This document shows, in pieces, positions 35,791 to 55,123 of a DNA stretch of 64,000 bases. Each line of letters starts with the position of its first letter. The stretch's first letter is position 1. The DNA comes from Candidatus Helarchaeota archaeon (GTDB lineage: Archaea; Asgardarchaeota; Lokiarchaeia; Helarchaeales; RDOG01): positions 567,536 through 631,535 of the forward strand of contig JAHPZH010000001.1 in the NCBI GenBank assembly GCA_019058315.1. The letters run 5' to 3'. The position numbers were made by a program, and so were the translations under genes. The notes below the pieces were generated by a model. The model was given only the letters and a program-made list of their open reading frames with translations, was not told the origin of the DNA and ran no database searches.

Positions 35791-37905
35791 CTAGAACTCA
35801 AATAATTTATGAAATATATTTCCAGAGTTATTAAATTGTGAAATATTTCCCGAAAAAGACTTAAGATGGTGCTCGTATTGGTTTTCAAATTCGTGTACAA
35901 AATTATTAAGGTTCTGAACCAAGTAGTCATTTGTTTTTCCATTTAATAGAATAATAGCTTGAATATATTCTCCACTACCAATTTCAATATTGAAATTTTT
36001 ATACTTCAAACCTGTAACGGGTGTCTCCTTCTTCGAGATTTCAGATCCAAAGCTTTGTATTGCTGTTATAAAACCACTCACTAAATCTGCATTTAATTCT
36101 ACCGGTCCAAGTTGTTCTTGGTAAATTGCTAGACCATTATTCTGATGTATAACAATTACATAATTAAGAATCGAAAGTCCATAAATTTTTTCTATTAATT
36201 CCAGATTTTTATCGATATTTTCTTGTCCAATTTCAAAATCTTCTATATACTTTTCAAAATCTTCATGGTCCTCTTTGTATAATTTAATATCATAATTTAC
36301 TAAATCACGAAGTTGCTTTAACCAATCTATTAAATCAGATTCTAATTCAATTGCAGTATCTATATCAATACAACTTTCTTCCTCAAACATTCCATTTAGT
36401 TTTATACTCCATTTATTCATACTATCTAAAACTTTAAAATCGGGGTAATATTTTTTTAAACCATTTTTAATCTTCGCTATGGAAGTTGATATTTTTTTTA
36501 TTTTTTCACCATTACAACATGTATTGAAGCATTCTTTTAATTCATTATTATAATTAAAAACATCTATTATTTTCCTAGCAACGTCCTCAGATTTTTCCAA
36601 TGCTTTTAAAGATTGTTCAAGTGAAATTATAATTAAATTTCGAATATAGGCTAACAAACCTGTAGTTTGGGTTAGATCATTTGCCCAAACTTCGATCATT
36701 ATATTTGGTTGATCCATACTAAGTTTTACAACGATTTCTTGTCCTGTTACTTTTACCTTACCCGAATAAAGAGTTGAAAGTTCTTGTTTATTTTCATTTA
36801 CTTTTGATAAATCTAATGCCTTAATTTGACTGAGAGCTATATTAAATGCTTGATTCTGAGAAATATCTCCGTAATCAATTTTAGTTGTGGATTTTTTCAA
36901 AGTTTTAATCCATTTATTAATTTCATATTCAGACATTGTTTGTGGAATTACTAATGGACATTTGATTGCTATCTCTTTTGGGGGGATTGTTATAGTATGG
37001 GCATTACCATAGGCATCTTGATATGAGACTGCACCAAAAATTGTTGATTTTCCACATGTATTTGGAATTAAAGTAAAATCCACGCCTCTAGAATTATTAG
37101 GGGGCAAAATTGGAACTCTCTGTATTGAATCTTCCCAAAAAAATTGATCTGATGGGGTTAATGTAACTGAAATATTACTTATACTCATATTTGAGGTGTT
37201 ATTTAGGGCAACTTTAAACCTAATATTTCCTCCAACGTAATCAAATTCACGTTTAATGGATAAAGTGTCAACAGTTTCATCGGCTTTTGGTATATAAAAT
37301 ACTACGTCATTTTCCACAATAGATTCAATTATATTGTATTTCAATAGTTTTTTTATGTGAGGTTGGATTTGACCATGCTGTAAATCTAAGTTTTTCTCGA
37401 TATCAACGAGCCGAACCTTTTTATAGATATTAATCTGGTGGAGAATTAGTTTTGTTCTCTCATTTCTTAAAACAAGTATTGTTTCATCTTGATTCTCGTC
37501 AGTACCAACTAAGAAATACACTTTTTTATTCATAAATCGTTTACTTCTTAATAAACCAAAAATCTCTAAATACTTCAGGTGTCTAAAAGCCCTATACGCA
37601 CCAAGGCCGAAAATATCCCTTATTTCTCTATTATGTGTGCCTGGGTTCATTTTAATATATTCAAATATCTTCTGTCTTATCTCATTATCCAAAATTGTCT
37701 CTTTGGTTAACCTAGATCCCTCAACAATATACTTTTTTTGATAAAGCTTCTTTATAGAATTTAAAATTTCTTCTTTAGACTGTTCAAGATGAGATATGCA
37801 AGATTTATAAAGATATTTCAACTCAATAGTTCTCTTTTCTGCTCCAATTTTGTTAGCAATATCTAAAATATCTCTCTCTAATTTTCCTACTCCCTCACGT
37901 TGCAA
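35791..37905 (-). CDS. Winged-helix regulator fused to adaptin-appendage-like and longin-like domains (paralog 1)
   Basis: N-terminal wHTH units (NPGTHNREI); central Ig sandwich plus platform (CPLVIPQTMSEYEINKW); C-terminal GLAIY...DLVSGFITAIQSFG...F.G....F longin-like domain. Confidence 0.75.
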   Translation of the reverse strand: MQREGVGKLERDILDIANKIGAEKRTIELKYLYKSCISHLEQSKEEILNSIKKLYQKKYIVEGSRLTKETILDNEIRQKIFEYIKMNPGTHNREIRDIFGLGAYRAFRHLKYLEIFGLLRSKRFMNKKVYFLVGTDENQDETILVLRNERTKLILHQINIYKKVRLVDIEKNLDLQHGQIQPHIKKLLKYNIIESIVENDVVFYIPKADETVDTLSIKREFDYVGGNIRFKVALNNTSNMSISNISVTLTPSDQFFWEDSIQRVPILPPNNSRGVDFTLIPNTCGKSTIFGAVSYQDAYGNAHTITIPPKEIAIKCPLVIPQTMSEYEINKWIKTLKKSTTKIDYGDISQNQAFNIALSQIKALDLSKVNENKQELSTLYSGKVKVTGQEIVVKLSMDQPNIMIEVWANDLTQTTGLLAYIRNLIIISLEQSLKALEKSEDVARKIIDVFNYNNELKECFNTCCNGEKIKKISTSIAKIKNGLKKYYPDFKVLDSMNKWSIKLNGMFEEESCIDIDTAIELESDLIDWLKQLRDLVNYDIKLYKEDHEDFEKYIEDFEIGQENIDKNLELIEKIYGLSILNYVIVIHQNNGLAIYQEQLGPVELNADLVSGFITAIQSFGSEISKKETPVTGLKYKNFNIEIGSGEYIQAIILLNGKTNDYLVQNLNNFVHEFENQYEHHLKSFSGNISQFNNSGNIFHKLFEF

Positions 37906-37999
37906 AAAAAATCCTCCATCTTATGGATTTATTTCAAATAACATTCTCCATCATATTTTTTTTAAATTAATATAATAAAAAAATAAAAGGTGGAATTTA

Positions 38000-40909
38000 T
38001 TAATCTTCTAGATCCTCGACTTCTTTCAGCCATTCTTCTATTTGTTCTTCATCTAGATTAGCAAGATCTTTTAAGAGTAACTCTTTATCTTCCTGTGATA
38101 GATTTCTTAAATTTTGAACTCTGCTATAAAGATCATCTGAAATGACTTTAAATGGTTTTTTGAGCATTTTTTCAACATCCTCAAAGGAAGTTTGTTCCGG
38201 TTTAGTTTCCTCAGATTCGGCTAAGATTGTTCTTATCTCCTTTGCTCCTAATTTAACACCTATTTTACGTTTTCCTTTCATAACCTTTTTTGATTTTACT
38301 TTTGGTGAACGTCTTTTAATAATTACTGTTGTCGCTACTAATGAACTAGCTGCGATACTACCAATTATTATTATTATTATTATGGTAATATCTTCTCCTG
38401 GGGGTATTATAATAATTGGTTTAGGATTCTTTTTCACTTTAAATTCATATACACTTGAATTATTTACTTGTCCACTTGTGTCATTGGCCCAAATTTGGTA
38501 TGAAATAGTTTTTTTGCTTGCATTCAAAGGAACAAATGTAACATAACTCCAATATCCATCTAATAAAGTTCCTGAAGTTAAGTTCATTTCAAAATATTGA
38601 AAAGATCCATATAAATCTGTATAGATTAGGACTTTAGAGATGCCTTTATCGTCCGTTACTCGTGCGGTAATATTAATGATGTCAAGTGGTCTTGGTCTTT
38701 TATTATTAATTGTAACATTTTGAATAGTAGGTAATTCATCAAAAATAACTTGATATTGATAGACACTTGAACTAGTTGAATTGCCATTAGTATCATTTGC
38801 CCAAATGGTATAATTAATTGTTGTTCCAATGGGTTGTTGAGGAATTGTATAATTCCAATAACCATTTTGAGGAGTACCAGATAGAAAATCTGTAGGATAA
38901 TCTAGGAAAATTCCTGTATAATTGGTATTTATTAATACTGTGTCAACCCCCGTTTCATCAGTGATATGCGCTGTTATAGAGACCATGTCCAAATCACTAG
39001 GAATGACTGGATCTTGTGTTACCATAATTATATTTGGCGGTTGCGTATCTGGAGTTCCGTTTCTAGGACCAAGAATACCAATAGTTGGTGGATTAACTAT
39101 CATAAGATTATGGAGATTATCAACAAAACCTTGTTTTTCAGTAACATTAGTAGTTCCGGCATCTAAAAAGAACTGCCATGCTCCAAAGCTGTTAATTACT
39201 TCCCATGGATATGGAAAGGTAGGATTTCTTCCAATAGTTACAAATACATTTGCAGGGTTAGGCCAACCACATTCTCGTATTAAAATATCATCTAAGTAAG
39301 GATCCTGAGTTGTTTCCCATATAGTTATTAAGATATTAGGATCACCAGTGTCTTCTTGAAACATTTTACCTGCATCAACTGCGTTTGGATGACTTTGCCA
39401 ACTAGCACCGGTATAATCAAAAGCTTCATATTGCCAGCTGCTAGATTGATGGTAGTAAACGCCATTAAAATCAATTGTGGCCTCATCGGCTTCAGCACCC
39501 CATACAAACCAGCCCGTAACACCTGAGCCAGGGTAATTATGATACTTATAGATATATGAATTTGCATAATACTTATATACTGACCATCTAGAAGAACTAT
39601 CAACATGCCAAGATTCAACAAAAATTGGACCATCAGAAATAATTGGTTTATTTGTTATCCAACCACCAGCACCTGTATCATATGTACTGGTCTCATGATA
39701 GTCAGACCTTCCTGATAAATGCTCATTCCCATTTTTATCGAACTGCCTAAGTATATCATAATTTACACCATTATCAGTATGCATCAAGACTGAAGCCCCA
39801 TCGGTGAAATTCACTGTATAACCCGTCCTCGAGATGTCGGTATATGCTGCTGGAGCTGTTGGAGTAGAGTTATAATATATACGATAACTTTTTGTTTCAG
39901 AGCCCGTTAGATTATCTATAAATGCGATATCTGCGGATGAAACATATAATATTCTATCTTCTTGATATCCAACATCCCATGAATTGTCGATTGCAGCTAC
40001 ATAGAAAGCTTTGTTTGCTTGTGGACCCGCACTTTCAATATGAAACCGATAAACCGTGGTTTGTACATTACGAAAACCAGTATTTTCGGTGATAATAGAC
40101 CAATTTAAATTAGTATCATCCCAAAAATAAGCCGAATATTGATCTATGGAACAATCAAAATTGATTTTAAAAGTATACCATTTATTTGCTTCATATGGTA
40201 TCCCAGAATCACTATAACCTGAACTATGACCATAATAAAAGGTACCTGAACTATTGAAAGCAACTGATACAGCATATCCATTAGCACCAGTAACTGAAAT
40301 ACCATTATATGTATCTGGACTAGTTGTCATTGTTGTTATATAATATGTTCCATTGACTTGGTTTGAAAAATCATGTTGTATATAACACCAATTTGTTGAA
40401 CTGTTATCATACAATTCAACTACCTTTTTATGACCACCAAAACGAGGTAGAACCCTAACACTAGTATCTGAAAGTTCTTGTACAGTCCATCCACTTGGAT
40501 TTCCCCAATCTGTTGAAGAAGAAAAAGTTTCCCAAGCGTAAGGCTCTAAATTATAAATTTGTGAAATTAATTCGTCTCCAACACCATATGGTGCCTTATA
40601 TACTCGTAAAGAGTCTTTAAAACAGTACTTACTTTGTTCAGTAAAATTTATGGGGTCTATTATGACATCTGTTTGATTTGAGCCAGTATTTTCTGTGATA
40701 TCGAATTGTTTGAAATGTTCAAAGTCTTCAGAACCAGCTATTTCTATATCTAGATCTAGAGATGCATTAGGAACTTGGATAAATGTAAAATTAGCTGAAC
40801 CCGAATTAAGCAAAGAAACTCCAAGATATATTGAACTAAGTAATATTAGACTTGTAAGAGCTAAGAGTAATCCTTTTTTATTTATTCTATTTTTATTTTT
40901 TAATCCCAT
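38000..40909 (-). CDS. Single-pass surface protein with conserved cytoplasmic helical tail (paralog 1)
   Basis: N-terminal signal, beta-rich ectodomain with many N-x-S/T sequons, two Ig-like units (WANDT), TM, basic linker, acidic helical tail. Confidence 0.8.
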   Translation of the reverse strand: MGLKNKNRINKKGLLLALTSLILLSSIYLGVSLLNSGSANFTFIQVPNASLDLDIEIAGSEDFEHFKQFDITENTGSNQTDVIIDPINFTEQSKYCFKDSLRVYKAPYGVGDELISQIYNLEPYAWETFSSSTDWGNPSGWTVQELSDTSVRVLPRFGGHKKVVELYDNSSTNWCYIQHDFSNQVNGTYYITTMTTSPDTYNGISVTGANGYAVSVAFNSSGTFYYGHSSGYSDSGIPYEANKWYTFKINFDCSIDQYSAYFWDDTNLNWSIITENTGFRNVQTTVYRFHIESAGPQANKAFYVAAIDNSWDVGYQEDRILYVSSADIAFIDNLTGSETKSYRIYYNSTPTAPAAYTDISRTGYTVNFTDGASVLMHTDNGVNYDILRQFDKNGNEHLSGRSDYHETSTYDTGAGGWITNKPIISDGPIFVESWHVDSSSRWSVYKYYANSYIYKYHNYPGSGVTGWFVWGAEADEATIDFNGVYYHQSSSWQYEAFDYTGASWQSHPNAVDAGKMFQEDTGDPNILITIWETTQDPYLDDILIRECGWPNPANVFVTIGRNPTFPYPWEVINSFGAWQFFLDAGTTNVTEKQGFVDNLHNLMIVNPPTIGILGPRNGTPDTQPPNIIMVTQDPVIPSDLDMVSITAHITDETGVDTVLINTNYTGIFLDYPTDFLSGTPQNGYWNYTIPQQPIGTTINYTIWANDTNGNSTSSSVYQYQVIFDELPTIQNVTINNKRPRPLDIINITARVTDDKGISKVLIYTDLYGSFQYFEMNLTSGTLLDGYWSYVTFVPLNASKKTISYQIWANDTSGQVNNSSVYEFKVKKNPKPIIIIPPGEDITIIIIIIIGSIAASSLVATTVIIKRRSPKVKSKKVMKGKRKIGVKLGAKEIRTILAESEETKPEQTSFEDVEKMLKKPFKVISDDLYSRVQNLRNLSQEDKELLLKDLANLDEEQIEEWLKEVEDLED

Positions 40910-41114: not shown

Positions 41115-43226
41115 TCAATTTAGGTTAAAAATTCTATGAAAAATATTTTTAGTGCTTTCAAATATCGAAATATTCCCTAAAAAGGATTTTAATTCTTTTT
41201 CATAGTGTCTTTCGAATTCATTAACAAAATTAACTAGAGATTTATTTAACTCATTGGTTGATTTACCATTTAATAAAATAACTGCTCTTGTATATGTTCC
41301 AGTAACTATCTCAATATTATAGTTTTCATATTTTAAACCTTTTACTAAAGTTTCCTTCCTTGAGACTTCAGTTCCAAAACTTTGTATTGCTGTTATAAAG
41401 CCACTTATTAAATCAGCATCCAATTTTACCGATCCAAGTTGTTGTTGATAAAGTGCCAATCCATTTTCCTTATGGGTTACGATGAGAAAATTAAGGATTG
41501 AATGTTCATATTTTTTTCTAATTAATTCTAAATTTTTATTAAAATTTTGTATTCCAATTTCAAAATTTTCTGGTATTTCATCATGGTCATAAGTATCCTT
41601 ATATAATTTTATATCATGGGAGACTAGTTCTTGGCTTTGTTTTAACCAATCAATCATTTCATATTCTAATTCAAGTGCAAGGTCATTATCAATACAATTT
41701 TCTTCTTCATACATTCCTTGAAATTTTAAAATCCATCCATTTATTGAATCCAAAACTTTAAAATCGGGATAAAGAGGTCCTAAATTATTTTTAATTTTTG
41801 TTAAATAACTAATTATTTTTCTAATTTCATCTCCATTACAACAAACATCAAAACAATTCTTTAATTCATGGTTCAAATTGAAAATTTGGTTTATCTTTCT
41901 CATCAATTCTTCAGATTTTTCCAAGGTTTTCTGAGATTGTCCTAAAGAAATTGCAATAAGATTTCTAATATATGCTAATAAACCAGTTGTTTGAGTAAAA
42001 TCTTCAGCCCAAACATCAATGATAATATGAGGTTTATCTATTCTAAGTTTCACGACAATTTGTTTGCCAGTAACTTTAACTTTTCCCGTATATAGGGCAT
42101 ATTCCTTAGAATTATCTTTGATTCTAGATAAATCTAATGCTCCTACATGACTTAAGGCAATATTATACGCTTGAATATCAGAGATATTTCCGTAATCTAT
42201 TTTGGTGGTAGATTTCTTTAAATTTTTAATCCACTGATTAATTTCAAATTGGGACATAGTTTGGGGAATTACTAATGGACATTTAATTGGAATCTCCTTA
42301 GCAGCTATTGTTGTGTTATGTATATTTCCAAAAGCATCTTGATAAGATACAATTCCAAAAACGGTCGATTTACCGCAAGTATTCGGGATTAAAGTAAAAT
42401 CTACACCTATTGAATTATGAGGCCGTAAAACAGAGACTCTTTTTACTGTCTCTTCCCAAAAAAATTGTTCTGAGGGAGTTAATGTCACCGAAATATTACT
42501 AATACTCATATTACTATTGTTTTGTATCGCAACTTTAAACCTAATATTACCTCCGAAATAATCAAATTCACGTTTGACTGTTATTTTATCAACTAATTCT
42601 GAGATTTTAGGAATATAATATACTATATTATTCTCTATTACAGAGTTAATTAACTTATATTCTTCCAGTTTTTTTACATGCGGTTGGATCTGTCCATGAC
42701 TTAAATTTAAAGATTTTCCTAGATCAGATAGTCTAGCTTTTTCCATTGTATTAATCTGATCTAAAATTTGCTTAGTACGTTCGTTTCTTAGGATTAATAT
42801 TTTATCATCTTGATTTTCGTCTGTTCCAACCAAAAAATAAGTGACTTTATTCATAAATCTCTTGCTTCTTAGAAACCCAAATACTTCTAAATAACCGAGA
42901 TTTCTAAGTGTATCATAAGTGCCAAGATTAAATACTCTTTGTATCTCTCTAATATGTGCTCCAGGATTTTGTTCAATATAATCATATATCAACTTTCTTT
43001 TCTTACTATCCAACAAATTTATTTTTGTAAGTTCATATCCTTCAATTAAATACTTTTCTCGAAATAATTTGTGGATTGATTTAACTATATCTTTTTCAGG
43101 ATAATTAAGTTTAGAAATAGCAGCTTTATAAAGCGGTTCTAATTCGATAGGTCTTTTCATTCCCCCAATCTCAACAGCAATTTCTAGGATCTTTCTTTCT
43201 ATGCTGTTTAATTCTTCTTGACCCAA
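41115..43226 (-). CDS. Winged-helix regulator fused to adaptin-appendage-like and longin-like domains (paralog 2)
   Basis: Colinear full-length paralog of 35791..37905. Confidence 0.75.
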   Translation of the reverse strand: MGQEELNSIERKILEIAVEIGGMKRPIELEPLYKAAISKLNYPEKDIVKSIHKLFREKYLIEGYELTKINLLDSKKRKLIYDYIEQNPGAHIREIQRVFNLGTYDTLRNLGYLEVFGFLRSKRFMNKVTYFLVGTDENQDDKILILRNERTKQILDQINTMEKARLSDLGKSLNLSHGQIQPHVKKLEEYKLINSVIENNIVYYIPKISELVDKITVKREFDYFGGNIRFKVAIQNNSNMSISNISVTLTPSEQFFWEETVKRVSVLRPHNSIGVDFTLIPNTCGKSTVFGIVSYQDAFGNIHNTTIAAKEIPIKCPLVIPQTMSQFEINQWIKNLKKSTTKIDYGNISDIQAYNIALSHVGALDLSRIKDNSKEYALYTGKVKVTGKQIVVKLRIDKPHIIIDVWAEDFTQTTGLLAYIRNLIAISLGQSQKTLEKSEELMRKINQIFNLNHELKNCFDVCCNGDEIRKIISYLTKIKNNLGPLYPDFKVLDSINGWILKFQGMYEEENCIDNDLALELEYEMIDWLKQSQELVSHDIKLYKDTYDHDEIPENFEIGIQNFNKNLELIRKKYEHSILNFLIVTHKENGLALYQQQLGSVKLDADLISGFITAIQSFGTEVSRKETLVKGLKYENYNIEIVTGTYTRAVILLNGKSTNELNKSLVNFVNEFERHYEKELKSFLGNISIFESTKNIFHRIFNLN

Positions 43227-43486: not shown

Positions 43487-46126
43487 TTAGGTTTTATAGT
43501 CTTCAATCTTTCTTAGCCATTCTTCCATATGTTCTTCATCTAAAGTAGCGAGATCTTTTAATAAAACCTCTTTTTCTTGTTCAGTTAGATGTTTTAGATT
43601 TTCTACTCTTAATAAAATATCCTTTGGGATAATTTTAAATGGTTTTGTTATAATTTTCTTAAGATCCTCAAAGGTTTCAGGTTCGAATTGCATTGATTCT
43701 CTAGTTGCAGCTGATTCTTCGGATTCTTTTAAAATAGCTCTGATTTCTTTTGCACCTAATTTGACATCTTTCTTTGCTTTTCCTTTTATGGCTTTTGCTT
43801 TTGTGATCTTTTTTGGTTCAAGTTTTAAAGCTCTTCTTCTTTGAAGAAATATAATTGTGCCAACAATAGAAGACGCTGCGACACTTCCGATGATAATAAT
43901 GATTATGATTCTAATATCTTCGCCTGGCGGGATTATGATGATTGGTTTTGGATTCTTTTTTACCTTAAATTGATAAAATGCTGAAGTATTTATTTGTCCG
44001 CTAGTATCATTGACCCAAATTGAGTAATTAATAGTTTTTTTACTGGCAGTCAAAGGAATTGTTGTATTATAGCTCCAATATCCATCCCATGTGCTTCCTG
44101 AAGTAAAATTCATTTCTAAATATTGAAATGTACCAAAAAGATTCGTATATAGAAAGACGTGAGAAACTTGTACGTTGTCTGTCACATGGACGGTAATATT
44201 TAGGGGATCAAGAGGTCGATATTTTTTCTGATTAAGAATAATTTCCAAAATATTAGGTGCTTCAGTATCTAAAGCCCCGTCCCTAGGTCCTAAGGCACTA
44301 ATTGTAGGTGGATTTTCAATAAGGATATCATATATATTATCAACGAAATCTTGTTTATCATTGATATTGGTTGAACCTATATCCATATAAAAATGCCAAA
44401 AATCGAAACTATGTGTAATTCCTGTCATTAGAGGGCTGGGACAGATTCCCATAGTAATTTGAAGAGCTGGATATCCAGCAAATGGAGGAAACCTGCATTC
44501 TCTAATCCGTAAACTATTTAACCAAATATCGGGAGCAATATCCCATAATGTTATTAAAATATTAGAATCACCAGTGTTTTCTGTAAACATCTTGCCTTGG
44601 TCTAATGTATAATAAGTCTCATGCCAACTTGCACCAGAATCATCAAAATCTTCTTGTGCCCAACTCCCCCCTTGATGAAAATATGATGCATTAAAGTCGA
44701 TATCTTGTCCTCCAGTAAGTGGATCAGAATATATTCCCGAAAAAGTATTTCCTCCTACTCCTGGATAGTGTTGATATTTATAGATAAATGAATTAGAATA
44801 GAATCTATAATAACACCAATCATTTTCATCATCACTTTGCCATGCCTCAATAAAAATAGGTCCATCACTGATTATTGGAGCGGACTCTGTTGCTCCAGTG
44901 ACGTTATTACCAGAAGAAGTCATAGCATATTGAGTTTGACCGGACAGATGTTCATTCCCATCCTTATCAAACTGTCTAAGAACATCCATATTAGTAGGAT
45001 ACATAATTGCAGAAGCCCCATCCGTGAAATTGACAGTGTAACCAGTCCTTGCTATATTTGTATAACTCGTCGATACTGTTGGAGTGCTGTTATAATATAC
45101 ACGATATTGTTTTGTCTCCGAGGCGGTTAAATTATCTATAAAAGCTACATTTACAGAAGAAATGTATAATATTCTATCTTCTGAATAAGCTGTTGCCCAA
45201 CTTGTATCTACTGCAGCAACATAAGAAGTACCTTTTGTTGCACCCGTGGCTCCAGCAATATATAGCGTATCAATATCTGCAGCTGGATTGTTCATATTAG
45301 CATCAATAAAAAGGCTTGACCAAGTATTAGCACTTTCATTCCAAAAATATCCTGAAAACTTATTTTCAGTGCAATTAAATGACATTTTGAATGTATACCA
45401 TTTATTTATTGAATATGGAATACCTGTATCTTGCAGCGAACCATTATGATAGCCAAAATTACCATCAGTTCTAAATAGAATTGAGCCTCTTGGATCAACT
45501 CCCCTTGACATGCTGAAACCTCCCCCATTGGTTTCATTAACTAACATAACAACATAAATCGTACCACTAGTCTGAGCCGTAAATGTATATCCAATGTTAT
45601 TACTTTGAACTGTATCATTATCATTGATTTCAACAACCTTTTCATACCCTTTAAATCGCGGAAGAACCCAGATATTTGTACCTACTGGTTCCCAAAGCAC
45701 CCAATTTGTTGTAGGATTTCCAAAATCAGGATCATTTTCAAAATTTTCCCAAGCTTGTAACTTTAAATTATAAACTTGGGAAATAATCTCGTCACTAGGT
45801 CCGTAAGGTGATTTATATAACCTTATTGAATCTTTAAAACAGTAATTATTTTCCTCATTGAAAATTACAGGATCTATTATTACATTCATTTGATTTGAAC
45901 CGGTGTTCTCTGTAACGGTAAATTGTTTAAAGTTTTCAAAACTTTTAGCAGATATTATGATATCTTCTACTTGGGAAGTTGCATTAAGAATTAGTGTGTT
46001 AGGAAATATATTCGATGAATTATTAGATATTGAACTTCCGATTCCAAGTATGCCTAAGAACATTAAACTTGTGAAAAACAGTAAGAAAATCCTTCTCTTG
46101 AAGTTACTTTTAGTTTTAAACCCCAT
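43487..46126 (-). CDS. Single-pass surface protein with conserved cytoplasmic helical tail (paralog 2)
   Basis: Paralog of 38000..40909 with one fewer Ig-like unit; shares KKNPKPIIIIPPGEDI and KPFK...LLKDLA.LDEE..EEWL. Confidence 0.8.
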   Translation of the reverse strand: MGFKTKSNFKRRIFLLFFTSLMFLGILGIGSSISNNSSNIFPNTLILNATSQVEDIIISAKSFENFKQFTVTENTGSNQMNVIIDPVIFNEENNYCFKDSIRLYKSPYGPSDEIISQVYNLKLQAWENFENDPDFGNPTTNWVLWEPVGTNIWVLPRFKGYEKVVEINDNDTVQSNNIGYTFTAQTSGTIYVVMLVNETNGGGFSMSRGVDPRGSILFRTDGNFGYHNGSLQDTGIPYSINKWYTFKMSFNCTENKFSGYFWNESANTWSSLFIDANMNNPAADIDTLYIAGATGATKGTSYVAAVDTSWATAYSEDRILYISSVNVAFIDNLTASETKQYRVYYNSTPTVSTSYTNIARTGYTVNFTDGASAIMYPTNMDVLRQFDKDGNEHLSGQTQYAMTSSGNNVTGATESAPIISDGPIFIEAWQSDDENDWCYYRFYSNSFIYKYQHYPGVGGNTFSGIYSDPLTGGQDIDFNASYFHQGGSWAQEDFDDSGASWHETYYTLDQGKMFTENTGDSNILITLWDIAPDIWLNSLRIRECRFPPFAGYPALQITMGICPSPLMTGITHSFDFWHFYMDIGSTNINDKQDFVDNIYDILIENPPTISALGPRDGALDTEAPNILEIILNQKKYRPLDPLNITVHVTDNVQVSHVFLYTNLFGTFQYLEMNFTSGSTWDGYWSYNTTIPLTASKKTINYSIWVNDTSGQINTSAFYQFKVKKNPKPIIIIPPGEDIRIIIIIIIGSVAASSIVGTIIFLQRRRALKLEPKKITKAKAIKGKAKKDVKLGAKEIRAILKESEESAATRESMQFEPETFEDLKKIITKPFKIIPKDILLRVENLKHLTEQEKEVLLKDLATLDEEHMEEWLRKIEDYKT

Positions 46127-46182
46127 GGTTCATTTTCACCTTTTTTTGTTTAAATCAGGTTAATATTATTAAAAAAAAATTG

Positions 46183-46212
46183 AATTTAAATCGAAATGGA
46201 ACAGTTTTATGC
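46183..46212 (-). promoter_or_regulatory. Conserved upstream element with TATA-like box
   Basis: Minus strand GCATAAAACTGTTCC-N6-ATTTAAATT; matches 40978-41007. Confidence 0.55.
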
Positions 46213-46481: not shown

Positions 46482-46507
46482 TGGACTAGATGCCTTTTTA
46501 AATTAAA
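46482..46507 (+). promoter_or_regulatory. Repeated promoter/operator motif, copy 1
   Basis: TGGACTAGA-N4-TTTTTAAATTAAA; repeated at 47250-47275. Confidence 0.6.
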
Positions 46508-46539
46508 TAAAGGAATTTCAATTCATAAGCTCGGTAGGG

Positions 46540-47247: not shown

Positions 47248-47249
47248 AA

Positions 47250-47275
47250 TGGACTAGACCCATTTTTAAATTAAA
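47250..47275 (+). promoter_or_regulatory. Repeated promoter/operator motif, copy 2
   Basis: TGGACTAGA-N4-TTTTTAAATTAAA, about 55 bp upstream of the 2597-aa gene. Confidence 0.6.
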
Positions 47276-47329: not shown

Positions 47330-50300
47330 ATGAAAAAAGATAAATTCGTAAACTTAATTTTGGCTTATTTTCTCATAATTTTCATATTTCTCCCCGTTAT
47401 TCATTCACCTTCATCAAATTTTTTGCCGCTATGGAGTAAAATAACAATTACTAACGAAATTCCGAAACATAAGCTTGAATTAGAAACTTCTGCTTTGGGC
47501 TGGCCCATGACTGAGGTGGTTTCCACGGAGAGTACGGGTAATTCTTATCATCCCTCGATCGCGGTGGACGGTACCGGGAACGTACATGTGGCGTGGGAAG
47601 ATTGGACGGACTATGGAGGTTCGGGAACGGATAATGATATATTCTATAAGTGCTGGAACGCAACCACTGGAACATGGAAGACTATAGAGGTGGTTTCCAC
47701 GGAGAGCATGGGGGATTCTTACTCTCCAACAATCGCTGCAGACGGTTTTGGGAACGTGCACGTGGCGTGGTATGATTTGTCGGATTACGGGGGCTCGGGG
47801 ACTGATTGGGATATATTCTATAAGCGCTGGAACGCCACCACAGGAACATGGTCAGGATTTATTAATACAACTGATGTAATCTCCACGGAGAGCACAGATC
47901 TTTCCCGTAAACCCTCACTGGCGGTAGACAGTTCTGGGAACGTGCACGTGGCGTGGGAAGATTGTACGGACTATGGGGGTTCGGGGACGGATAATGATAT
48001 ATTCTATAAGTGTTGGAACACCTCCACGAGTTCTTGGACTACGACCGTGCTAATCTCCACGGAGAGTACGGGTAATTCTTATAATCCCTCGATCGCAGTG
48101 GACGGTTCCGAGAACGTGCACGTGGCGTGGTACGATTTGACGGATTACGGAGGCTCGGGGACTGATAAGGATATATTCTATAAACGCTGGAACGCCACAG
48201 GAATATGGTCAGGATTTATTAATACAACTGATATAGTCTCTACGGAGAGCTCGAATGATTCTTGGCTTCTAGCAATCGCGGTGGACGGTTCCGGGAATGT
48301 ATACGTGGCGTGGTGTGATTTGACGGACTATGGGGGCTCGGGAACGGATCCTGATATATTCTATAAGTGTTGGAACACTACCACAGGAATATGGAACACG
48401 ACAGAGGTGGTTTCCACGGAGAGCACGGGTATTTCTTTTCATCCAACAATAGCAGTGGACGGTTCTGGGAACGTGCACGTTGCGTGGATGGATTATACGG
48501 ACTATGAGGGTGCAGGAACGGACCGGGATATATTCTATAAGCGCAGGAACGCCATCACAGGAATATGGTCAGGATATGTTAATGCGAGTGATGTAGTCTC
48601 CACAGAGAGTACGGGACAATTTTATAATTCCAGTCCAACAATAGCGGTTGATACTACTGGAAACGTGCATGTGGCATGGGATGATTCGACTAATTATGGA
48701 GGTTCGGGGACCGATCATGATATATTTTATAAACACCAAATAAATATTGCAAATAATTATTCGGATGATTTTAATTCCGGGACCTTAGATCCGAAATGGA
48801 TATGGCACGATGGGGGTGAAGGGGAGAGTTGGAACTTAACCGTTAATCCCGGAAATTTACGGATAATCTCGACGAGTAAGATTAATGCATGGTGGGGTAA
48901 TAATGGAGACAATATTATTTATATGCCATACATATATCAAAATTTTTCTAATATTCAATATTTTGAAATTATAACTAAGGTTAATCCTCCAGACGGAAAT
49001 GGAAAAGGGAATGGAATAGTTCTTTATGAGGATGATAATAATTATATTGTTTTAAATAACTATCGAGATAGTGTGGGAAATATTCTCTATGCACAGTATA
49101 GAAGTGTGGGAGATCCACTAACTAATATAGGTGTAATCAGAACTACCGTCAATTATTTTAAATTAATGCGAATAGGAAATTTAATTTCATATCAATATTC
49201 AAATGATGGAAGTTCTTGGAATATATTAGCAAATTATACTCATAACTACAATTTTATTCGGATGGGTATTTTTTGTTCAAGTGTAGGAGGAGGTATATTT
49301 AATTCAGATTTTGACTTTTTCAATTTCACAGAGTTAGCACCTTCTATGCCGCCACCAGATCCAAATACAAAAACCCCTCTTTGGAAATATGATACTGGTA
49401 GTTCTATTTATTCTGTTGCAATTACACCTAATGGTCAATATATTGCGGTAGGGACTGGAAACAGTTTACATTTTTGGGATATAAACTCTTCCACTCCTCT
49501 TTGGAGTTATTATGTTGGAGATGTTGTTCAAGCAGTGGATATGTCAGAAGATGGAAATTATATAGTTGCTGGAACTGGAGTTTTGGACCAGCCAGGTAAT
49601 GTTGTATTATGGCAACGTAGTAGTTCAACTCCAATATGGAATTATACAGGTTCTGGTAATTTTGGTTCTATTGCTATATCTGCTGATGGCAATTATATTG
49701 TTGCTGGAGACAGACTTTCAAATAACTTGCATTTATGGCATAGAGATAATTCTACACCTTTGTGGTCTTTCAATCCTGGTTCAGGTAATTGGGAATCGGT
49801 TGCAATTTCATCAGATGGATATTACATTGTCGCTAGTGATGGTTTCTATCATGATTATGTTTATTATTTTGATAGGACAAGTTCTACTCCTATGTGGAAC
49901 TATCAATGTGGTTCGGATGTTTGGTCAGTAGACATTTCAAAAGATGGGCAATATTACGCTGCAGGAAGCAAAGATCATAAAATATATTTCTGGCAAAATA
50001 ATAGTGATACACCAGTTTGGGATTATTCTACTAGTGGAGAAGTGTTTTCGGTTTCAATTTCAAACGACGGATCTCATATTGCAGCTGGAAGTGTCGATAA
50101 TAACCTATATTATTTTAAAACTGATAATTCTACTCCTCAATGGTCCTATACAACTGGTGATGATATCTGTTCAGAAAGAACTGTTTCCATCTCTGGAGAT
50201 GGAGAATATATTGCAGCAGGAACTAAGGATTCTAAAATTTATTTCTTCTATAGAAATGATTCTACACCCATATGGAATTTTACTACAATTACTGGATCTA

Positions 50301-53300
50301 TTGGAGCCATTGATTTATCGGATACAGGACAATATTTGGTAGCAGGCGGGCAAGATCATTATGTCTATGTATTTTCACAAGATAATGAAATGCCCCCAAC
50401 TTCAAATCATCCATTAGATATAATTACTACTGTAAGCGGAACAGAAACGATTAATTGGACACTTTACGATGATTCTGGACCAGGTCAATACCGAATTTGG
50501 GTTAATGATACTAATAATAACTATTATATATGGATTGATTGGACACCGTGGATTAATAATACTAATTTAATCGTTCCAATAAATAGAAGTACTGTCGGAG
50601 TGTTCAATTATACTATAGAATATAATAATAGCAATGGAACATTTGGAATTCCTGATATAGTTATAGTAAAAATAGAAATCTCGGTATTTAACTGGACTAT
50701 GACTGAAGTTATCTCTACGGAGAGTACGGAAGATTCTTCCCAGCCAGCAATTGCAGTTGATAATCTTGGAAATGTTCACGTGGTATGGAATGATTGGACT
50801 GACTATGGAGGTTCAGACATGGATTGTGATGTATTTTACAAGCGTTGGAATGCTATTACGAGCAACTGGACTTTGACGGAGGTAGTTTCCACTGAAAGTA
50901 CGCTTGATGTTTGGAATTTATCCATCGTGGCTGATAGTTCTGGGAATTTACACGTGGTTTGGAGCGATTGGACAGATTATGGAGGTTCAGGAACAGACAA
51001 TGATATATTTTACAAGTTCTGGAATGCTACTTCGGGAACTTGGAGCGGATATATTAATGCTACCGATGTGGTCTCTACAGAGAGCACAGGAAGCTCTAGG
51101 GATCCGGCAATCGCAGTGGATGGTTCCGGGAATGTGCACGTGGTATGGACTGAATGGTCTAATGGAGATATATTCTACAAATTCTGGAACTCTACCTCGA
51201 AAACTTGGAACGGGAATATTAATGCTACCGATGTGGTCTCCACGGAGGGCACAGGTCAATCTTGGTATCCATCTATCGATGTGGATGGATCCGGAAATGT
51301 GCACGTGGTGTGGGAGGATTCGTCGGATTACGGTGATTCGGGAACAGATGATGATATATTTTATAAATTCTGGAATGTTACCTCAAGAATTTGGAGTGGA
51401 AATATTAACACAACTGACATAGTTTCAACGGAAAGCACGGGGGGCTCTTGGTATCCATCGATCGCTGTGGATAGTTCTGGGAATGTACATGTGGTATGGA
51501 GCGATTGGACGGATTATGGAGGTGCGGGATTGAAAAATGATATTTTTTACAAATTCTGGAACGTAACCTCGGGAACTTGGGGTGGTAATTTTAATGCAAC
51601 CGATGTTGTCTCCACTGAAAGTACGGAAAGTTCTTACAGTCCATCGATATTTGTTGATAGTTTCAATAACTTACACGTGGTATGGGAGGATCATACGGAT
51701 TATGGGATGTCAGGAACAGATAATGACATATTTTACAAGTTGAGGAACGCTCCCTCGGGAATCTGGAGCGGAACTGTTAATATTACTGATATAATATCGA
51801 CAGAGAGCACGGGATCTTCTTGGAACCCATCGATAGTTGTTGACGGCTCTGGGAACATACATGTTACTTGGGATGATATGACCAATTATAATGGTTCAGG
51901 AATAGATCGTGATATATTTTATAAGAAAAAAACAATTACGGAATTACCATCTCCTCCTACTTCAAATCATCCAGCAGATATTATTACTCCATTAAGTGGA
52001 ACAGATACCATTAACTGGACACTATACGATGATTTTGGACCAGGTCAATACCGAGTTTGGGTTAATGATACAAACAATAATTACTATATATGGGTAGATT
52101 GGACAATATGGACTAATAATACTAATTTGGCCATTCCAATTAATAGAACTGCTATCGGAGTGTTCAATTATACTATAGAATATAATAACAGCATAGGATT
52201 ATTTGGGATTCCAGATACAGTTCTTGTATTTATTAATCTCCCTGCTCAGAGTAATTCTATTATTTATGGTCTAAATTCGTCTATAGGGTATAATTATCAT
52301 GCAATTCGTATAGATTTGGGTGATATAATAGTTGAAAATACTTTAAATCTTACTCCAGGTAAATTAAATGGGACTCCAGTGATTAATTCTACTATACTTG
52401 AAAACTCAAATGTTATATACGAATCATTTCTGGACAATATTAATCTGTTCGGGAATGCAAAGCTTACTATGAGAAATATATTTGAAACAGGATTAAATAT
52501 TTATTTATTCAATAACTCTGAATTGATCCTAGAGAATTGTACCCTTAATTCAATCACGGCTTGCGACACCTCAAAAGTTTGGATTAAGAATACAACTATA
52601 AACTATATATATGATTATATTAATTGGAGTTTTCCGATTATTTTTGATCCCAGCCCCGACTCAAGTACAATATATGTATTACAAAAATCAACTATAAGCC
52701 AAGTTCACTTATCTGGTGGATCAAATTTTGTAGTTGAAAATAGCACGATTGATTGGATGACAATGCAATCTTTAGCGAACATAATATCAGGAATTTCAAG
52801 AATTTCTTTGCAAGCAACGATTACTAATTCAACGTTAAATTATCTTAGGCTTTATAGGGATTCAAAAGCTACGGTATTTAGCTCACAACTTATTACAGCA
52901 TATGTGTATGATATAGCAAAATTGAGTTTAGTTGCGTCCACAATTACGAATTTATATTATGGCATAATTTGCAATTCAGGATTCACAAGTATTGTTGATG
53001 GTGTTCCAAGTGGAGGTTATATAAATAATACTCAACTAATCGGAACTTCACCATCTGGTTCGTTTGAGCTTATAAGTGTTGCAGTAACCGGTTCTGCATC
53101 TGCCTATATAGAGGGATGGCTAACAACTACTTCATTTGATCTATATTTATATGATTCTTCCTTAGCTCAGTTAAATTACACTTTTGATGCGAATTTAATA
53201 TGTTCTTATAATAATTCTCAATTAGACATTGAAAATTCGATTATAACAACTATAATGGCGTATTTGAATTCTTCAGTAACAATCCAAAAAAATTGTTCGA

Positions 53301-55123
53301 TTGGTTATATGACTATTTGGGGGACAGGGGCTATCTCAATAGATAATAGCACAATTAATGACATATATACAGCTCAATCTTTAACTTCCTCACCAGTTGG
53401 CAATATTTTAATTACGAACTCAACTATCTCATGGGCATCTATTTCTGGGGAATTTATAGCGACCTTTATAAATTGTATAATTAATTCTTTGGTAGAAGGC
53501 ATTGTTGTTTATGATGGTACTGTTATAATAGATTCAACTGGGATAAGTGGGTCAGGAAGTTATACAAATTATACTCAAATCATTTCAAGTACAGTTTTTT
53601 CAAGGTCTTTAATGTTGATCGAAGTAAATAATACTGCTAATGTAATTATTAATGAAGGTTGGTATGGTAATATATATTTAATGCATGATGCAAGTGCCAC
53701 TCTAACTAATGCAAACATAGCAGGAATAGCTTTGTTCAATAATTCCAATGCTTTCATCCATAATTCTACTATAAACGGAACTTTGTTTGGGTTAATGAGT
53801 CTTGGGAGTTCTTATTTTTCAATTGATCAAAATTCCACTTTAAGTATGATGTTTTGTACGGCATCAAGTAATGGGACAATGACTAACTCTACGGTTCTTT
53901 CAAGATTAATCTTAGCCAATTCCGCAACATTGACCATTCTAAAATCTACAATCTTGGGAGTCGCTAAAATTATGGGGTCAAATTCAATTGATTATTCTCT
54001 TAAAATGTATAATTCATCAATTGATGTACTTGAGGGAATTATCTGGGATTATTTATTATTTTATGTAACTATTAAACCTTCAATAATATTAAATAGTCCA
54101 CAAAATCAAACTGTAATAAAAAAACCAGCATATATTGATCTTAAGATTTCAGATGATGATCTAGACCCCTCGACTGTGGAATGGATAGCAAACGTAACAC
54201 AACTTACTTGGACGAATTCTTTTATTGGGTCTTATGATATTGATCTATCTAGTTTTGCCAGTGACCAGACGGTGCAATTCTGGGTTAGAGCGAATGATAC
54301 TTTAGATAATCAGAATCTAATAACTTTTATTTTGACTTTTGATGATATTCCTCCAACTAAACCATCGAATCTAACAGCAATTATTCAAAAAGGCAATATT
54401 ACTATCTCTTGGAATTCATCTTCAGATTTTAATGCTATTTATTATCATATTTGGAGACATAGTAAAAGAGTTAGTAAATATTTAGGAAATACTACATCCA
54501 ATTTTTATATAGATCTCGAGAGTTTAAAACCAGGAAAATATACTTACGAGATAATTCCATTTGATGAAGCAAATAATACAGGAGAATCTATAAACATTAC
54601 TGTAAAAATACGAGGAAGAGATATATATTATCCATTTTTAGAACCCCCTAAAGATAATATAACCTTTATTATTTTCGTGATTATAGGATCTATAGCTGTA
54701 ACCACAAGCGTAGCAATTGTATATAGGAAATACAAAGGTTCAGAAAAAAAGCCTAAAAAAATAGGTAAGGAGACAGGACCAAAACGGAAAAAAAGAAAGA
54801 AATGGAAAGGTAAAATGGCTTTCAAAGTGGATTATATTGGAATCAGTGATCTTTCTGTAGAACTAAAGCTTAGAAATCTCACTAAATCCCCAATTCCTCT
54901 AGATTCCATTGAAGATGAAAATATTAGGGAATTTTATAGTCAAGAATTCAACATTTTATCTGTAGATGAAATAAATAGAATTTTAAAAATGCAAATTCCA
55001 GATATTTCTGATAAAATAGAAATATTGGATGAATTAGCTCGTTTATCTCCAGAAGAACGAAAAGATTTGATTGAATCTCTTGAAAAACTTAATCGATCAA
55101 GACTTAATAGTGAATTTCAATAA
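47330..55123 (+). CDS. Giant (2597 aa) modular surface protein: two 7-repeat propellers, ConA-like domain, WD40/PQQ-like propeller, Ig-like units, beta-helix-like region, FN3, TM, cytoplasmic helical tail
   Basis: Signal peptide; 14 copies of VSTES...AVD..GNVHV.W.D..DYGGSGTD.DIFYK; SVAIS.DG.YI repeats; TM near C-terminus. Confidence 0.85.
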   Translation: MKKDKFVNLILAYFLIIFIFLPVIHSPSSNFLPLWSKITITNEIPKHKLELETSALGWPMTEVVSTESTGNSYHPSIAVDGTGNVHVAWEDWTDYGGSGTDNDIFYKCWNATTGTWKTIEVVSTESMGDSYSPTIAADGFGNVHVAWYDLSDYGGSGTDWDIFYKRWNATTGTWSGFINTTDVISTESTDLSRKPSLAVDSSGNVHVAWEDCTDYGGSGTDNDIFYKCWNTSTSSWTTTVLISTESTGNSYNPSIAVDGSENVHVAWYDLTDYGGSGTDKDIFYKRWNATGIWSGFINTTDIVSTESSNDSWLLAIAVDGSGNVYVAWCDLTDYGGSGTDPDIFYKCWNTTTGIWNTTEVVSTESTGISFHPTIAVDGSGNVHVAWMDYTDYEGAGTDRDIFYKRRNAITGIWSGYVNASDVVSTESTGQFYNSSPTIAVDTTGNVHVAWDDSTNYGGSGTDHDIFYKHQINIANNYSDDFNSGTLDPKWIWHDGGEGESWNLTVNPGNLRIISTSKINAWWGNNGDNIIYMPYIYQNFSNIQYFEIITKVNPPDGNGKGNGIVLYEDDNNYIVLNNYRDSVGNILYAQYRSVGDPLTNIGVIRTTVNYFKLMRIGNLISYQYSNDGSSWNILANYTHNYNFIRMGIFCSSVGGGIFNSDFDFFNFTELAPSMPPPDPNTKTPLWKYDTGSSIYSVAITPNGQYIAVGTGNSLHFWDINSSTPLWSYYVGDVVQAVDMSEDGNYIVAGTGVLDQPGNVVLWQRSSSTPIWNYTGSGNFGSIAISADGNYIVAGDRLSNNLHLWHRDNSTPLWSFNPGSGNWESVAISSDGYYIVASDGFYHDYVYYFDRTSSTPMWNYQCGSDVWSVDISKDGQYYAAGSKDHKIYFWQNNSDTPVWDYSTSGEVFSVSISNDGSHIAAGSVDNNLYYFKTDNSTPQWSYTTGDDICSERTVSISGDGEYIAAGTKDSKIYFFYRNDSTPIWNFTTITGSIGAIDLSDTGQYLVAGGQDHYVYVFSQDNEMPPTSNHPLDIITTVSGTETINWTLYDDSGPGQYRIWVNDTNNNYYIWIDWTPWINNTNLIVPINRSTVGVFNYTIEYNNSNGTFGIPDIVIVKIEISVFNWTMTEVISTESTEDSSQPAIAVDNLGNVHVVWNDWTDYGGSDMDCDVFYKRWNAITSNWTLTEVVSTESTLDVWNLSIVADSSGNLHVVWSDWTDYGGSGTDNDIFYKFWNATSGTWSGYINATDVVSTESTGSSRDPAIAVDGSGNVHVVWTEWSNGDIFYKFWNSTSKTWNGNINATDVVSTEGTGQSWYPSIDVDGSGNVHVVWEDSSDYGDSGTDDDIFYKFWNVTSRIWSGNINTTDIVSTESTGGSWYPSIAVDSSGNVHVVWSDWTDYGGAGLKNDIFYKFWNVTSGTWGGNFNATDVVSTESTESSYSPSIFVDSFNNLHVVWEDHTDYGMSGTDNDIFYKLRNAPSGIWSGTVNITDIISTESTGSSWNPSIVVDGSGNIHVTWDDMTNYNGSGIDRDIFYKKKTITELPSPPTSNHPADIITPLSGTDTINWTLYDDFGPGQYRVWVNDTNNNYYIWVDWTIWTNNTNLAIPINRTAIGVFNYTIEYNNSIGLFGIPDTVLVFINLPAQSNSIIYGLNSSIGYNYHAIRIDLGDIIVENTLNLTPGKLNGTPVINSTILENSNVIYESFLDNINLFGNAKLTMRNIFETGLNIYLFNNSELILENCTLNSITACDTSKVWIKNTTINYIYDYINWSFPIIFDPSPDSSTIYVLQKSTISQVHLSGGSNFVVENSTIDWMTMQSLANIISGISRISLQATITNSTLNYLRLYRDSKATVFSSQLITAYVYDIAKLSLVASTITNLYYGIICNSGFTSIVDGVPSGGYINNTQLIGTSPSGSFELISVAVTGSASAYIEGWLTTTSFDLYLYDSSLAQLNYTFDANLICSYNNSQLDIENSIITTIMAYLNSSVTIQKNCSIGYMTIWGTGAISIDNSTINDIYTAQSLTSSPVGNILITNSTISWASISGEFIATFINCIINSLVEGIVVYDGTVIIDSTGISGSGSYTNYTQIISSTVFSRSLMLIEVNNTANVIINEGWYGNIYLMHDASATLTNANIAGIALFNNSNAFIHNSTINGTLFGLMSLGSSYFSIDQNSTLSMMFCTASSNGTMTNSTVLSRLILANSATLTILKSTILGVAKIMGSNSIDYSLKMYNSSIDVLEGIIWDYLLFYVTIKPSIILNSPQNQTVIKKPAYIDLKISDDDLDPSTVEWIANVTQLTWTNSFIGSYDIDLSSFASDQTVQFWVRANDTLDNQNLITFILTFDDIPPTKPSNLTAIIQKGNITISWNSSSDFNAIYYHIWRHSKRVSKYLGNTTSNFYIDLESLKPGKYTYEIIPFDEANNTGESINITVKIRGRDIYYPFLEPPKDNITFIIFVIIGSIAVTTSVAIVYRKYKGSEKKPKKIGKETGPKRKKRKKWKGKMAFKVDYIGISDLSVELKLRNLTKSPIPLDSIEDENIREFYSQEFNILSVDEINRILKMQIPDISDKIEILDELARLSPEERKDLIESLEKLNRSRLNSEFQ
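47500..48735 (+). repeat. Seven intragenic coding repeats of about 175-195 bp (propeller 1)
   Basis: Recurrent TCCACGGAGAG...GGGAACGTGCACGTGGCGTGG...GATATATTCTATAAG; boundaries approximate. Confidence 0.85.
50690..51925 (+). repeat. Seven intragenic coding repeats (propeller 2)
   Basis: Same repeat family as 47500-48735; boundaries approximate. Confidence 0.85.

Follow-up and report, generated by a model that had tools for sequence, protein, structure and literature searches.

The window, by which we mean the whole 64,000-nucleotide (nt) stretch analyzed here, is archaeal DNA of low GC content (~30%) from a Candidatus Helarchaeota archaeon (assembly GCA_019058315.1, contig JAHPZH010000001.1, positions 567,536 to 631,535), and it carries three of the ~15 copies that this genome holds of a two-gene module conserved in Loki-type Asgard archaea. 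One gene of the module encodes a type-I surface protein ending in a small helical tail, and its neighbor encodes a protein with a tandem winged helix-turn-helix (wHTH). We favor, with a probability of about one-half, the reading that the two products form a kinase-free dyad in which the tail docks its cognate wHTH protein, and the free wHTH protein acts at a TGGAC element in the promoters of the module. The genome spans 5.8 Mb on 12 contigs and contains 12,371 open reading frames (ORFs), of which 5261 are at least 100 amino acids (aa) long. The six ORFs that an initial annotation of the window had listed for the module (P0001 to P0006) were all recovered at the same positions.

Three surface proteins of the window end in related cytoplasmic tails

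P0002 (969 aa; 38000 to 40909, minus strand), P0004 (879 aa; 43487 to 46126, minus strand), and the giant P0006 (2597 aa; 47330 to 55123, plus strand) are, as had been proposed, single-pass surface proteins: each begins with an N-terminal signal-like hydrophobic segment, has one C-proximal transmembrane (TM) helix (54665 to 54721 in P0006), and continues into a related tail. Since a Lys/Arg-rich stretch follows the TM helix in all three proteins, the positive-inside rule places their C termini in the cytoplasm, and the same type-I topology was found uniformly in all large tail proteins of the genome. P0002 and P0004 are paralogs whose ectodomains are 45% identical and whose C-terminal parts are 58% identical; the P0006 ectodomain shows no significant similarity to either of theirs (best E value, 0.74). 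Pfam detected DUF7743 Ig-like repeats in P0002, while the P0006 ectodomain comprises SBBP-type repeats, a ConA-like domain, a WD40/PQQ-like propeller, a beta-helix-like region, and an Ig/FN3 stalk. The ectodomain thus appears to be freely exchangeable while the TM helix, the tail, and the wHTH gene persist. The ORF that follows P0006, P0007 (1575 aa; 55210 to 59937), has the Ig/FN3 stalk and the pre-TM segment in common with P0006 and ends 10 to 15 residues past its TM helix; it is a tail-less sister of P0006 and has no wHTH gene of its own.

The tail domain occupies residues 887 to 969 of P0002 (38003 to 38251, minus strand; E = 3.8e-22 with a tail hidden Markov model [HMM]) and residues 2495 to 2597 of P0006 (54812 to 55120, plus strand; E = 2.3e-25), both also supported by alignment, as well as residues 785 to 879 of P0004 (43490 to 43774, minus strand). 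In a direct BLASTP comparison the P0002 and P0006 tails matched each other with an E value of 9e-5, and the relatedness of the tails lies beyond chance. An HMM seeded with the three tails converged on 15 of the 12,371 ORFs of the genome (E values of 1e-17 to 4e-27); the matches lie at the extreme C terminus of proteins of 556 to 6781 aa, plus one 73-aa tail-only ORF. The domain is helical and ~70 to 80 aa long, with a core of ~60 residues that falls into two subtypes and follows the pattern F..F..LS..E..RI..L.IP..EK..IL.ELA.LS.EER.EFL..LE. The P0002 tail is acidic, with a net charge of -10 across its final 60 aa. Neither a Pfam scan nor a PDB profile search found a matching sequence family, and the tail is best regarded as a real domain family outside the catalogued ones.

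Across the phylum, the tail was present in 149 of 400 genomes, including 130 of the 135 in one family. Tail carriers elsewhere mostly have one or two copies, typically in a ~540-aa protein, and many of these orthologous proteins (loci L054 to L073) contain 1.5 tail copies, with a partial second HMM match right behind the first. Many genomes of the class also conserve tail-only ORFs of 71 to 97 aa, which lack a TM helix and have no neighboring wHTH gene. The one in the present genome (contig C5, 22386 to 22607) lies between a SUKH/SMI1-KNR4 gene, beyond which is an FMN-reductase gene, and a 263-aa ORF without a Pfam match. Such ORFs could act as soluble competitors for the partner of the tail.

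Tail genes are paired with a family of wHTH genes

P0002, P0004, and P0006 each adjoin a homologous wHTH gene, namely, P0001 (704 aa; 35791 to 37905, minus strand), P0003 (703 aa; 41115 to 43226, minus strand), and P0005 (46555 to 47247, plus strand), respectively. All three exceed the Pfam cutoff of 31 bits for PF24266 (HTH_HVO_0163_N), with scores of 39.4, 41.9, and 39.6 bits, and P0001 and P0003 are 63% identical. Homologs of P0001 were found only in Asgard metagenome-assembled genomes (MAGs), under the names Promethearchaeota, Helarchaeota, and Hodarchaeota. The tandem winged-helix module, which spans residues 61 to 209 of P0001 (37279 to 37725, minus strand; own-genome HMM E = 1.5e-51), is common to all 15 partners in the genome, each a strong member of the family (module HMM, E < 1e-36).

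Thirteen of these 15 wHTH genes immediately adjoin a tail gene, and the pairs are spread over six contigs. A 14th (732 aa, contig C11) is directly followed by a 1360-aa ORF, which overlaps tail gene C11_266137 across a run of undetermined bases. At this locus (C11, 266137 to 272416), the run divides what is apparently a single tail receptor gene into ORFs of 1360 and 734 aa, the upstream one of which is preceded by a TGGAC element; the 1360-aa ORF is probably the 5' part of the tail gene, in which case the 14th wHTH gene also adjoins a tail gene. Only one divergent member of the wHTH family has no tail neighbor. Outside this genome, a tandem-wHTH gene of the same family (~300 aa) lies 10 to 30 nt downstream of the tail gene on the same strand in 24 of 26 evaluable loci. 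Type-A receptors also stand beside long partners in other MAGs, as seen for NCBI locus tags ACFFCM_00800/00795 and ACFFDN_26215/26210 and for ACFFCM_06505, which lies between 06495 and 06510. The initial annotation had suggested a co-occurrence check with a tail HMM and had counted a lack of enrichment of tail genes beside the regulators as evidence against its own proposal. When the check was run, tail genes proved to be overwhelmingly enriched beside the wHTH family in this and other genomes, and the counts given above decide that point in favor of the pairing.

The two partners have also diverged in parallel. The distance matrices of tails and wHTH modules were strongly correlated (Mantel r = 0.80, P ≤ 1e-4), also within the larger tail subtype alone (r = 0.56, P = 0.0016), and the tails and wHTH modules have thus co-diversified. 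Their charges are complementary, since the tail cores carry a net charge of -1 to -11 in 12 of 14 pairs and the wHTH modules one of +1 to +14. A complex prediction for the P0005 wHTH module with the P0006 tail scored 0.00 and 0.01, where the mark to reach was 0.32; it was run without controls and counts neither way. At one locus, a Roadblock/LC7 gene (C11, 251924 to 252163; at 70.8 bits the best match in the genome) lies directly downstream, on the same strand, of a 3675-aa tail receptor; given that the genome has 23 Roadblock matches, this adjacency could be due to chance.

The wHTH partners resemble DNA-binding proteins

The P0001 winged helices matched PF24266 and, weakly, HTH_27/MarR-type families. 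Over all wHTH units the Pfam matches were to PF24266, HTH_24, HTH_20, HTH_5 (ArsR), MarR, and TrmB, which are DNA-binding families rather than ESCRT-II families, and the second unit of the tandem is ArsR/MarR/TrmB-like. We found no functional study of HVO_0163 in the searchable literature.

The initial annotation had placed coat-adaptor parts at the core of the pairing. These parts turned out to be accessory: of the 15 partners encoded here, 6 carry an appendage and a longin-like domain and 9 carry neither, and the ~300-aa partners sampled elsewhere lack both domains without exception. The conserved core of the pairing is instead the tail and the tandem wHTH alone. P0005 is such a short partner. 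Its standard-start ORF begins at a TTG at 46720 (175 aa), yet the frame is open for ~70 codons before this first ATG, GTG, or TTG (46507 to 46720), homology extends from ~46561, and the alignment to a 247-aa paralog (49% identity) begins at paralog residue 3. The gene therefore starts upstream and encodes a protein of about 230 aa; judging from this homology, its start codon is probably a noncanonical ATT at 46555, ~55 nt past the TGGAC/TATA element.

A TGGAC element abuts the TATA box of module promoters

A shared element was recognized in the promoters of the module genes. The P0005 promoter (46482 to 46500, plus strand) reads TGGACTAGA..., with a T-rich TATA-like box directly after it, and the P0006 promoter (47250 to 47268, plus strand), 80 nt before the ATG, reads TGGACTAGACCCA and has a TATA-like box; the element cores of the two are near identical. 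Upstream of P0002 (40979 to 40999, minus strand), a CTGGTCC variant of the element, unique in the window, is followed by a TATA-like box, and this layout recurs upstream of P0004 (CTGTTCC variant plus TATA-like box; 46180 to 46204, minus strand) and of C5_564558. Aligning the upstream regions of P0002 and P0004 with each other was uninformative.

In a search for TGGAC-N5-9-TTTWWA up to 260 nt ahead of each of the 5261 ORFs with at least 100 aa, 9 of the 21 sites lay before module genes, relative to ~0.1 expected; for a strict form of the element, the proportion was 6 of 8. Several copies are imperfect palindromes (TGGA-N5-YCCA), and a TTGGA-C-TCCAA palindrome beside a T-rich box lies upstream of the ~540-aa tail gene in other genera. 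A shared TGGAC element that abuts the TATA box fits a membrane-to-gene output. We also considered a wider regulon of the TTGGACTCCAA palindrome in genome G239 and rejected it, as five further sites near unrelated genes (FMN reductase, RsmB, thioredoxin, and a Zn-ribbon protein) formed no pattern.

Long partners carry an appendage fold and a probable longin domain

In P0001, an N-terminal region and the tandem wHTH are followed by an appendage (residues 208 to 440; 36586 to 37284, minus strand), a helical linker (residues 441 to 559; 36229 to 36585, minus strand), and a longin-like C-terminal domain (residues 560 to 704; 35794 to 36228, minus strand); by homology, P0003 has a P0001-like architecture. 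Both proteins have a sandwich-plus-platform unit, with a P..MS..E...W junction at residues 321 to 332, and a C-terminal alpha/beta domain. The initial annotation had read these extra domains as an adaptin-type appendage and a longin. The appendage fold was borne out by an AlphaFold2 (AF2) model and a Foldseek search, and the longin is plausible through a transitive sequence link, its model being poor.

The AF2 model of the appendage, built with 15 homologs, had a predicted local distance difference test score (pLDDT) of 89.9 and consists of a beta-sandwich and an alpha/beta platform of the adaptin/COPI type. Its best Foldseek matches were COPI gamma and beta, AP2 alpha, and AP2 beta2 (E values of 3e-12 to 1e-8 over 218 to 245 columns), followed by BBSome subunits. 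A second aligner, VIA, gave Z scores of 11.7 to 13.3 across both subdomains, the best being to residues 719 to 938 of the AP2 alpha-adaptin ear (Z = 13.3, ~200 residues aligned). The platform alone (model residues 110 to 228) matched the AP-4 beta ear 2mj7 with a Z score of 12.3 and a root mean square deviation (RMSD) of 2.6 Å over 113 residues. The sandwich (model residues 5 to 110; seven to eight strands, pLDDT of ~90) matched the sandwiches of BBSome GAE, TRAP, C3 MG, and transglutaminase domains (Z scores of 11 to 13, RMSD of 1.6 to 2.8 Å). By itself the sandwich is a common Ig-like fold, and it is its combination with the platform that is specific. The orientation of the two subdomains differs from that in crystal structures, with a global RMSD of 12 to 14 Å even though both halves align, and this difference may be real or may reflect hinge uncertainty of the model. 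In sequence searches, Pfam assigned the region to no appendage family: P0001, unlike P0003, had a single match, to PF23304 (GAE_BBS1; E = 0.0094), whose score of 16.7 bits falls below the cutoff of 27; a PDB profile search returned only weak matches to the arrestin C domain (E = 0.05), which the fold search supersedes.

The AF2 model of the longin region, built from 13 sequences, was of low confidence (pLDDT of 37.8), although its elements follow the longin order b-b-a-b-b-b-a-a, and neither residues 560 to 704 of P0001 nor their 45-sequence profile had a direct match in Pfam or the PDB. The longin profile matched well over 100 ORFs of the genome and 3637 cluster representatives worldwide at an E value of ≤0.001. 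PF19036 (Fuz_longin_1), the first longin domain of FUZ, MON1, and HPS1, had 10 matches in the genome, 8 of which were also matches of the longin profile; among them, C5_703236 (longin-profile E = 1.4e-10) was the one that exceeded the PF19036 cutoff (38.5 bits). A paralog matched Intu_longin_1 at an E value of 3e-4, and ESM Atlas feature searches returned only archaeal clusters and, at 0.86 to 0.87, a lead to a Roadblock/LAMTOR2/Fuz_longin cluster. These profile links make it probable that the C-terminal domain of P0001 is a longin. Within the genome, members of this longin-like family also occur as stand-alone proteins of ~130 to 150 aa, as proteins of ~355 to 375 aa that carry it C-terminally, and in ~1120-aa TPR proteins. 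The linker gave weak BAR_3 matches (E values of 0.004 to 0.035); no PF03997 (VPS28) match was found in region 425 to 580 of six homologs, and no VPS28 match of the genome overlaps these genes.

The appendage, linker, and longin also occur in four further type-I surface proteins of the genome (2607, 1488, 1252, and 899 aa), in which they follow the TM helix and ~40 basic residues. These fused receptors lack both the tail and the wHTH, which is as expected if the tail and the wHTH together form a noncovalent joint.

Genes around the module

P0001 is directly flanked by co-directional genes of the amino-acid-kinase, hydantoinase_A, and ATP-grasp_3 families (32664 to 35619), which show no evident connection with the module. 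A TFIIB gene is located at 30689 to 31585, and just before it, ~4 kb from the module (28787 to 31585 for the two genes), is the gene for a 564-aa TPR protein with a match to SNAP (soluble NSF attachment protein; E = 2.5e-17). In another genome, a TFIIB gene adjoins a tail-only ORF (locus L049). Pfam scans of five ORFs that flank the module revealed no protease gene.

Proposed mechanism and alternatives

In the dyad that we favor, the first gene would supply a type-I surface protein in which an exchangeable ectodomain is joined through a TM helix and basic juxtamembrane residues to a mostly acidic helical tail, and the second gene, usually directly downstream on the same strand, would supply a basic cytoplasmic protein with the tandem wHTH as its constant part. 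The tail would be the docking site of the cognate wHTH protein. Once undocked, the wHTH protein would bind the TGGAC-type imperfect palindrome abutting the TATA box of its own module promoters, and transcription would then respond to the state or abundance of the surface protein in a kinase-free feedback, through signal-dependent release. In the long forms, of which there are two in the window and six in the genome, docking would also bring an interaction hub of the trafficking or GTPase type beneath the receptor, possibly linking it to GTPases or ESCRT. Kinase-free membrane-to-gene signaling had already been suggested by the initial annotation; the enriched pairing, the appendage fold, and the promoter element speak for it, and the docking of tail and regulator, like the DNA binding of the wHTH proteins and their signal-dependent release, is inferred.

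Several points weigh against this dyad. Since co-duplicated neighbors give congruent trees and synteny without any contact between their products, the pairing, modularity, and co-diversification establish a functional linkage rather than docking, and co-duplication alone could have yielded the parallel divergence of tail and wHTH. The type-A promoters of the window (P0002 and P0004) carry only the degenerate CTGKTCC variant, the 11-mer palindrome occurs two to nine times per genome in other genomes, mostly away from tail genes, and a different factor could bind the promoter element. No tail match at an E value of ≤1e-5 was obtained in three genomes of the same class that are closed into single contigs (G134, G137, and G142; 4.4, 6.0, and 4.3 Mb); the module is therefore not universal and is missing from part of the class, possibly including cultured strains. 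In the fused receptors the appendage-longin hub functions with no DNA-binding domain attached, so that the hub's own job lies at the membrane and not on DNA. Finally, ESCRT-II-type winged helices bind proteins, not DNA, and HTH/PCI domains in proteins with such a hub are read as protein-interaction modules by Makarova et al. 2024 (PMC11188069).

The alternative that survives best, which we nevertheless consider rather unlikely, is that the partner is a cargo adaptor. The wHTH would then be no transcription factor and would grip the tail as an ESCRT-II/PCI-like protein-docking module, and the appendage and longin would recruit ESCRT, small GTPases, or other factors in order to sort, cluster, internalize, or turn over the surface protein, as an Asgard functional analog of ESCRT-0 or clathrin adaptors. 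AP2 and COPI classically use the appendage fold as an interaction hub, the appendage-longin hub is fused straight to receptors that lack a wHTH, the longin-like family is hugely expanded in the genome, and a Roadblock/LC7 gene follows one tail receptor; moreover, Makarova et al. 2024 (PMC11188069) propose substrate recognition for trafficking for Asgard proteins with appendage, Vps28-C, longin, and HTH/PCI domains. Such an adaptor is difficult to reconcile with partners that have neither appendage nor longin, as is the case for 9 of 15 here and for all ~300-aa partners sampled elsewhere. The winged helices match DNA-binding families instead of ESCRT-II families, the wHTH modules are strongly basic, a dedicated palindrome-like element marks the module promoters, and Pfam scans of the module and its neighbors turned up neither a VPS28 nor an ESCRT gene.

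It is less probable still that the wHTH protein is an operon autoregulator that never touches the tail, with the cassette duplicating as a unit and the tail serving in oligomerization, in cytoskeleton anchoring, or in binding of a stand-alone tail-only protein. This would account for the tight co-directional spacing, which suggests an operon, for the promoter element common to the module genes, and for the congruent divergence, which is expected from co-duplication alone; the tail-only ORFs that are conserved without a wHTH neighbor in many genomes likewise point this way. What it leaves hard to explain, unless tail and wHTH cooperate, is that ectodomains were swapped repeatedly while the TM helix, tail, and wHTH gene stayed together, and the joint loss of tail and wHTH in the fused receptors and the complementary charges of the two also argue against it. 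That there is no system at all, the tail likeness being low-complexity or coiled-coil noise of Lys/Glu-rich helices and the adjacency a single recent local duplication (P0002/P0001 and P0004/P0003 clearly arose by tandem duplication), is contradicted by the tail HMM, which gives exactly 15 C-terminal matches at E values of ≤1e-17 among all ORFs, by the spread of the pairs over six contigs, and by the recurrence of tail and pairing in other genomes (149 of 400 genomes and 24 of 26 loci), and can be dismissed.

A more demanding version of the dyad, in which tail and wHTH are a genuine docking pair and the long forms are both DNA-binding regulators and proto-coat adaptors by virtue of their appendage and longin, can be put forward only tentatively.

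Asgard genomes are rich in eukaryote-like parts, such as appendages, longins, Roadblock proteins, and small GTPases, and very few strains have been cultured. The module supplies the appendage-longin proteins with a genetically linked candidate partner, the ~80-aa receptor tail, and with a candidate DNA target, the TGGAC element beside the TATA box. If the docking is true, it would add an archaeal scheme of kinase-free transmembrane signaling and would show to what ancestors of coat-adaptor ears were attached before there were vesicle coats. If the dual role is true as well, one family would couple surface receptors both to gene expression and to trafficking- or GTPase-type machinery in the closest archaeal relatives of eukaryotes, as a prokaryotic forerunner of adaptors that shuttle between receptor tails and the nucleus.

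Comparison with known systems

In extracytoplasmic function (ECF) sigma/anti-sigma pairs and in Mlc-PtsG, a membrane protein, often encoded by a neighboring gene, uses its cytoplasmic part to retain a cytoplasmic DNA-binding protein and lets it go on a signal. The likeness of these pairs to the tail and wHTH is one of logic only; no homology was detected, and they use other DNA-binding folds and another topology, with regulated proteolysis in the case of the anti-sigma factors.

The closest conceptual precedent of the dyad is the predicted bacterial HAAS-PadR pair, in which a small membrane-linked alpha-helical domain always travels with a stand-alone wHTH gene (Ravi et al. 2024, mSystems; PMC11237479). 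HAAS-PadR was proposed as a kinase-free alternative to two-component signaling: the transcription factor would be retained by the helical domain and then set free, a mechanism that is itself only predicted. The likeness is one of organization, namely, a membrane-linked small helical domain encoded beside a stand-alone wHTH gene. HAAS is N-terminal to multi-TM or intracellular sensor domains, whereas the Asgard tail forms the C terminus of single-pass proteins that have huge ectodomains, and the partner of HAAS is PadR, whereas the Asgard partner is a PF24266/ArsR-like tandem winged helix with no PadR family among its Pfam matches. We rejected membership of the tail in HAAS, since only 2 of the 15 tails matched PF22564, below threshold (best, 21.8 bits against 27) and over ~20 residues (tail residues 70 to 89), and the tail alignment has no conserved column for the GxP kink of the HAAS families (PF22564, DUF1700, and DUF1129).

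The long partners themselves have published relatives. Makarova et al. 2024 (PMC11188069) reported on Asgard proteins that combine appendage, Vps28-C, and longin domains, in some cases with HTH/PCI, TPR, or Ig domains, and read them as ESCRT-I/0-like sorting factors. P0001 and P0003 combine an appendage and a probable longin in one Asgard polypeptide with the optional HTH, and they almost certainly belong to these architectures, with which they share the phylum and the presence of HTH, appendage (Ig sandwich plus TBP-like platform), helical region, and longin in a single chain. The accessible part of that paper does not mention the receptor tail, the gene pairing, wHTH-only partners, fused receptors, or the promoter element. 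The initial annotation had known of no description of the pairing; this stands for the tail pairing, of which we found no description in the searchable literature, as for the short partners, fused receptors, and promoter element, whereas the combination of HTH, appendage, and longin is published.

The appendage, finally, has the same two-subdomain order in P0001 as in the known appendages of AP2 alpha and beta2, AP-4 beta, COPI gamma and beta, and the BBSome (GAE plus platform; PDB 1b9k, 1w80, 1e42, 2mj7, 1pzd, 9qpq, and 6vbu), at a sequence identity of 10 to 15%. The known ears are carried on a HEAT solenoid, whereas the Asgard appendage is joined to winged helices or directly to a TM helix.

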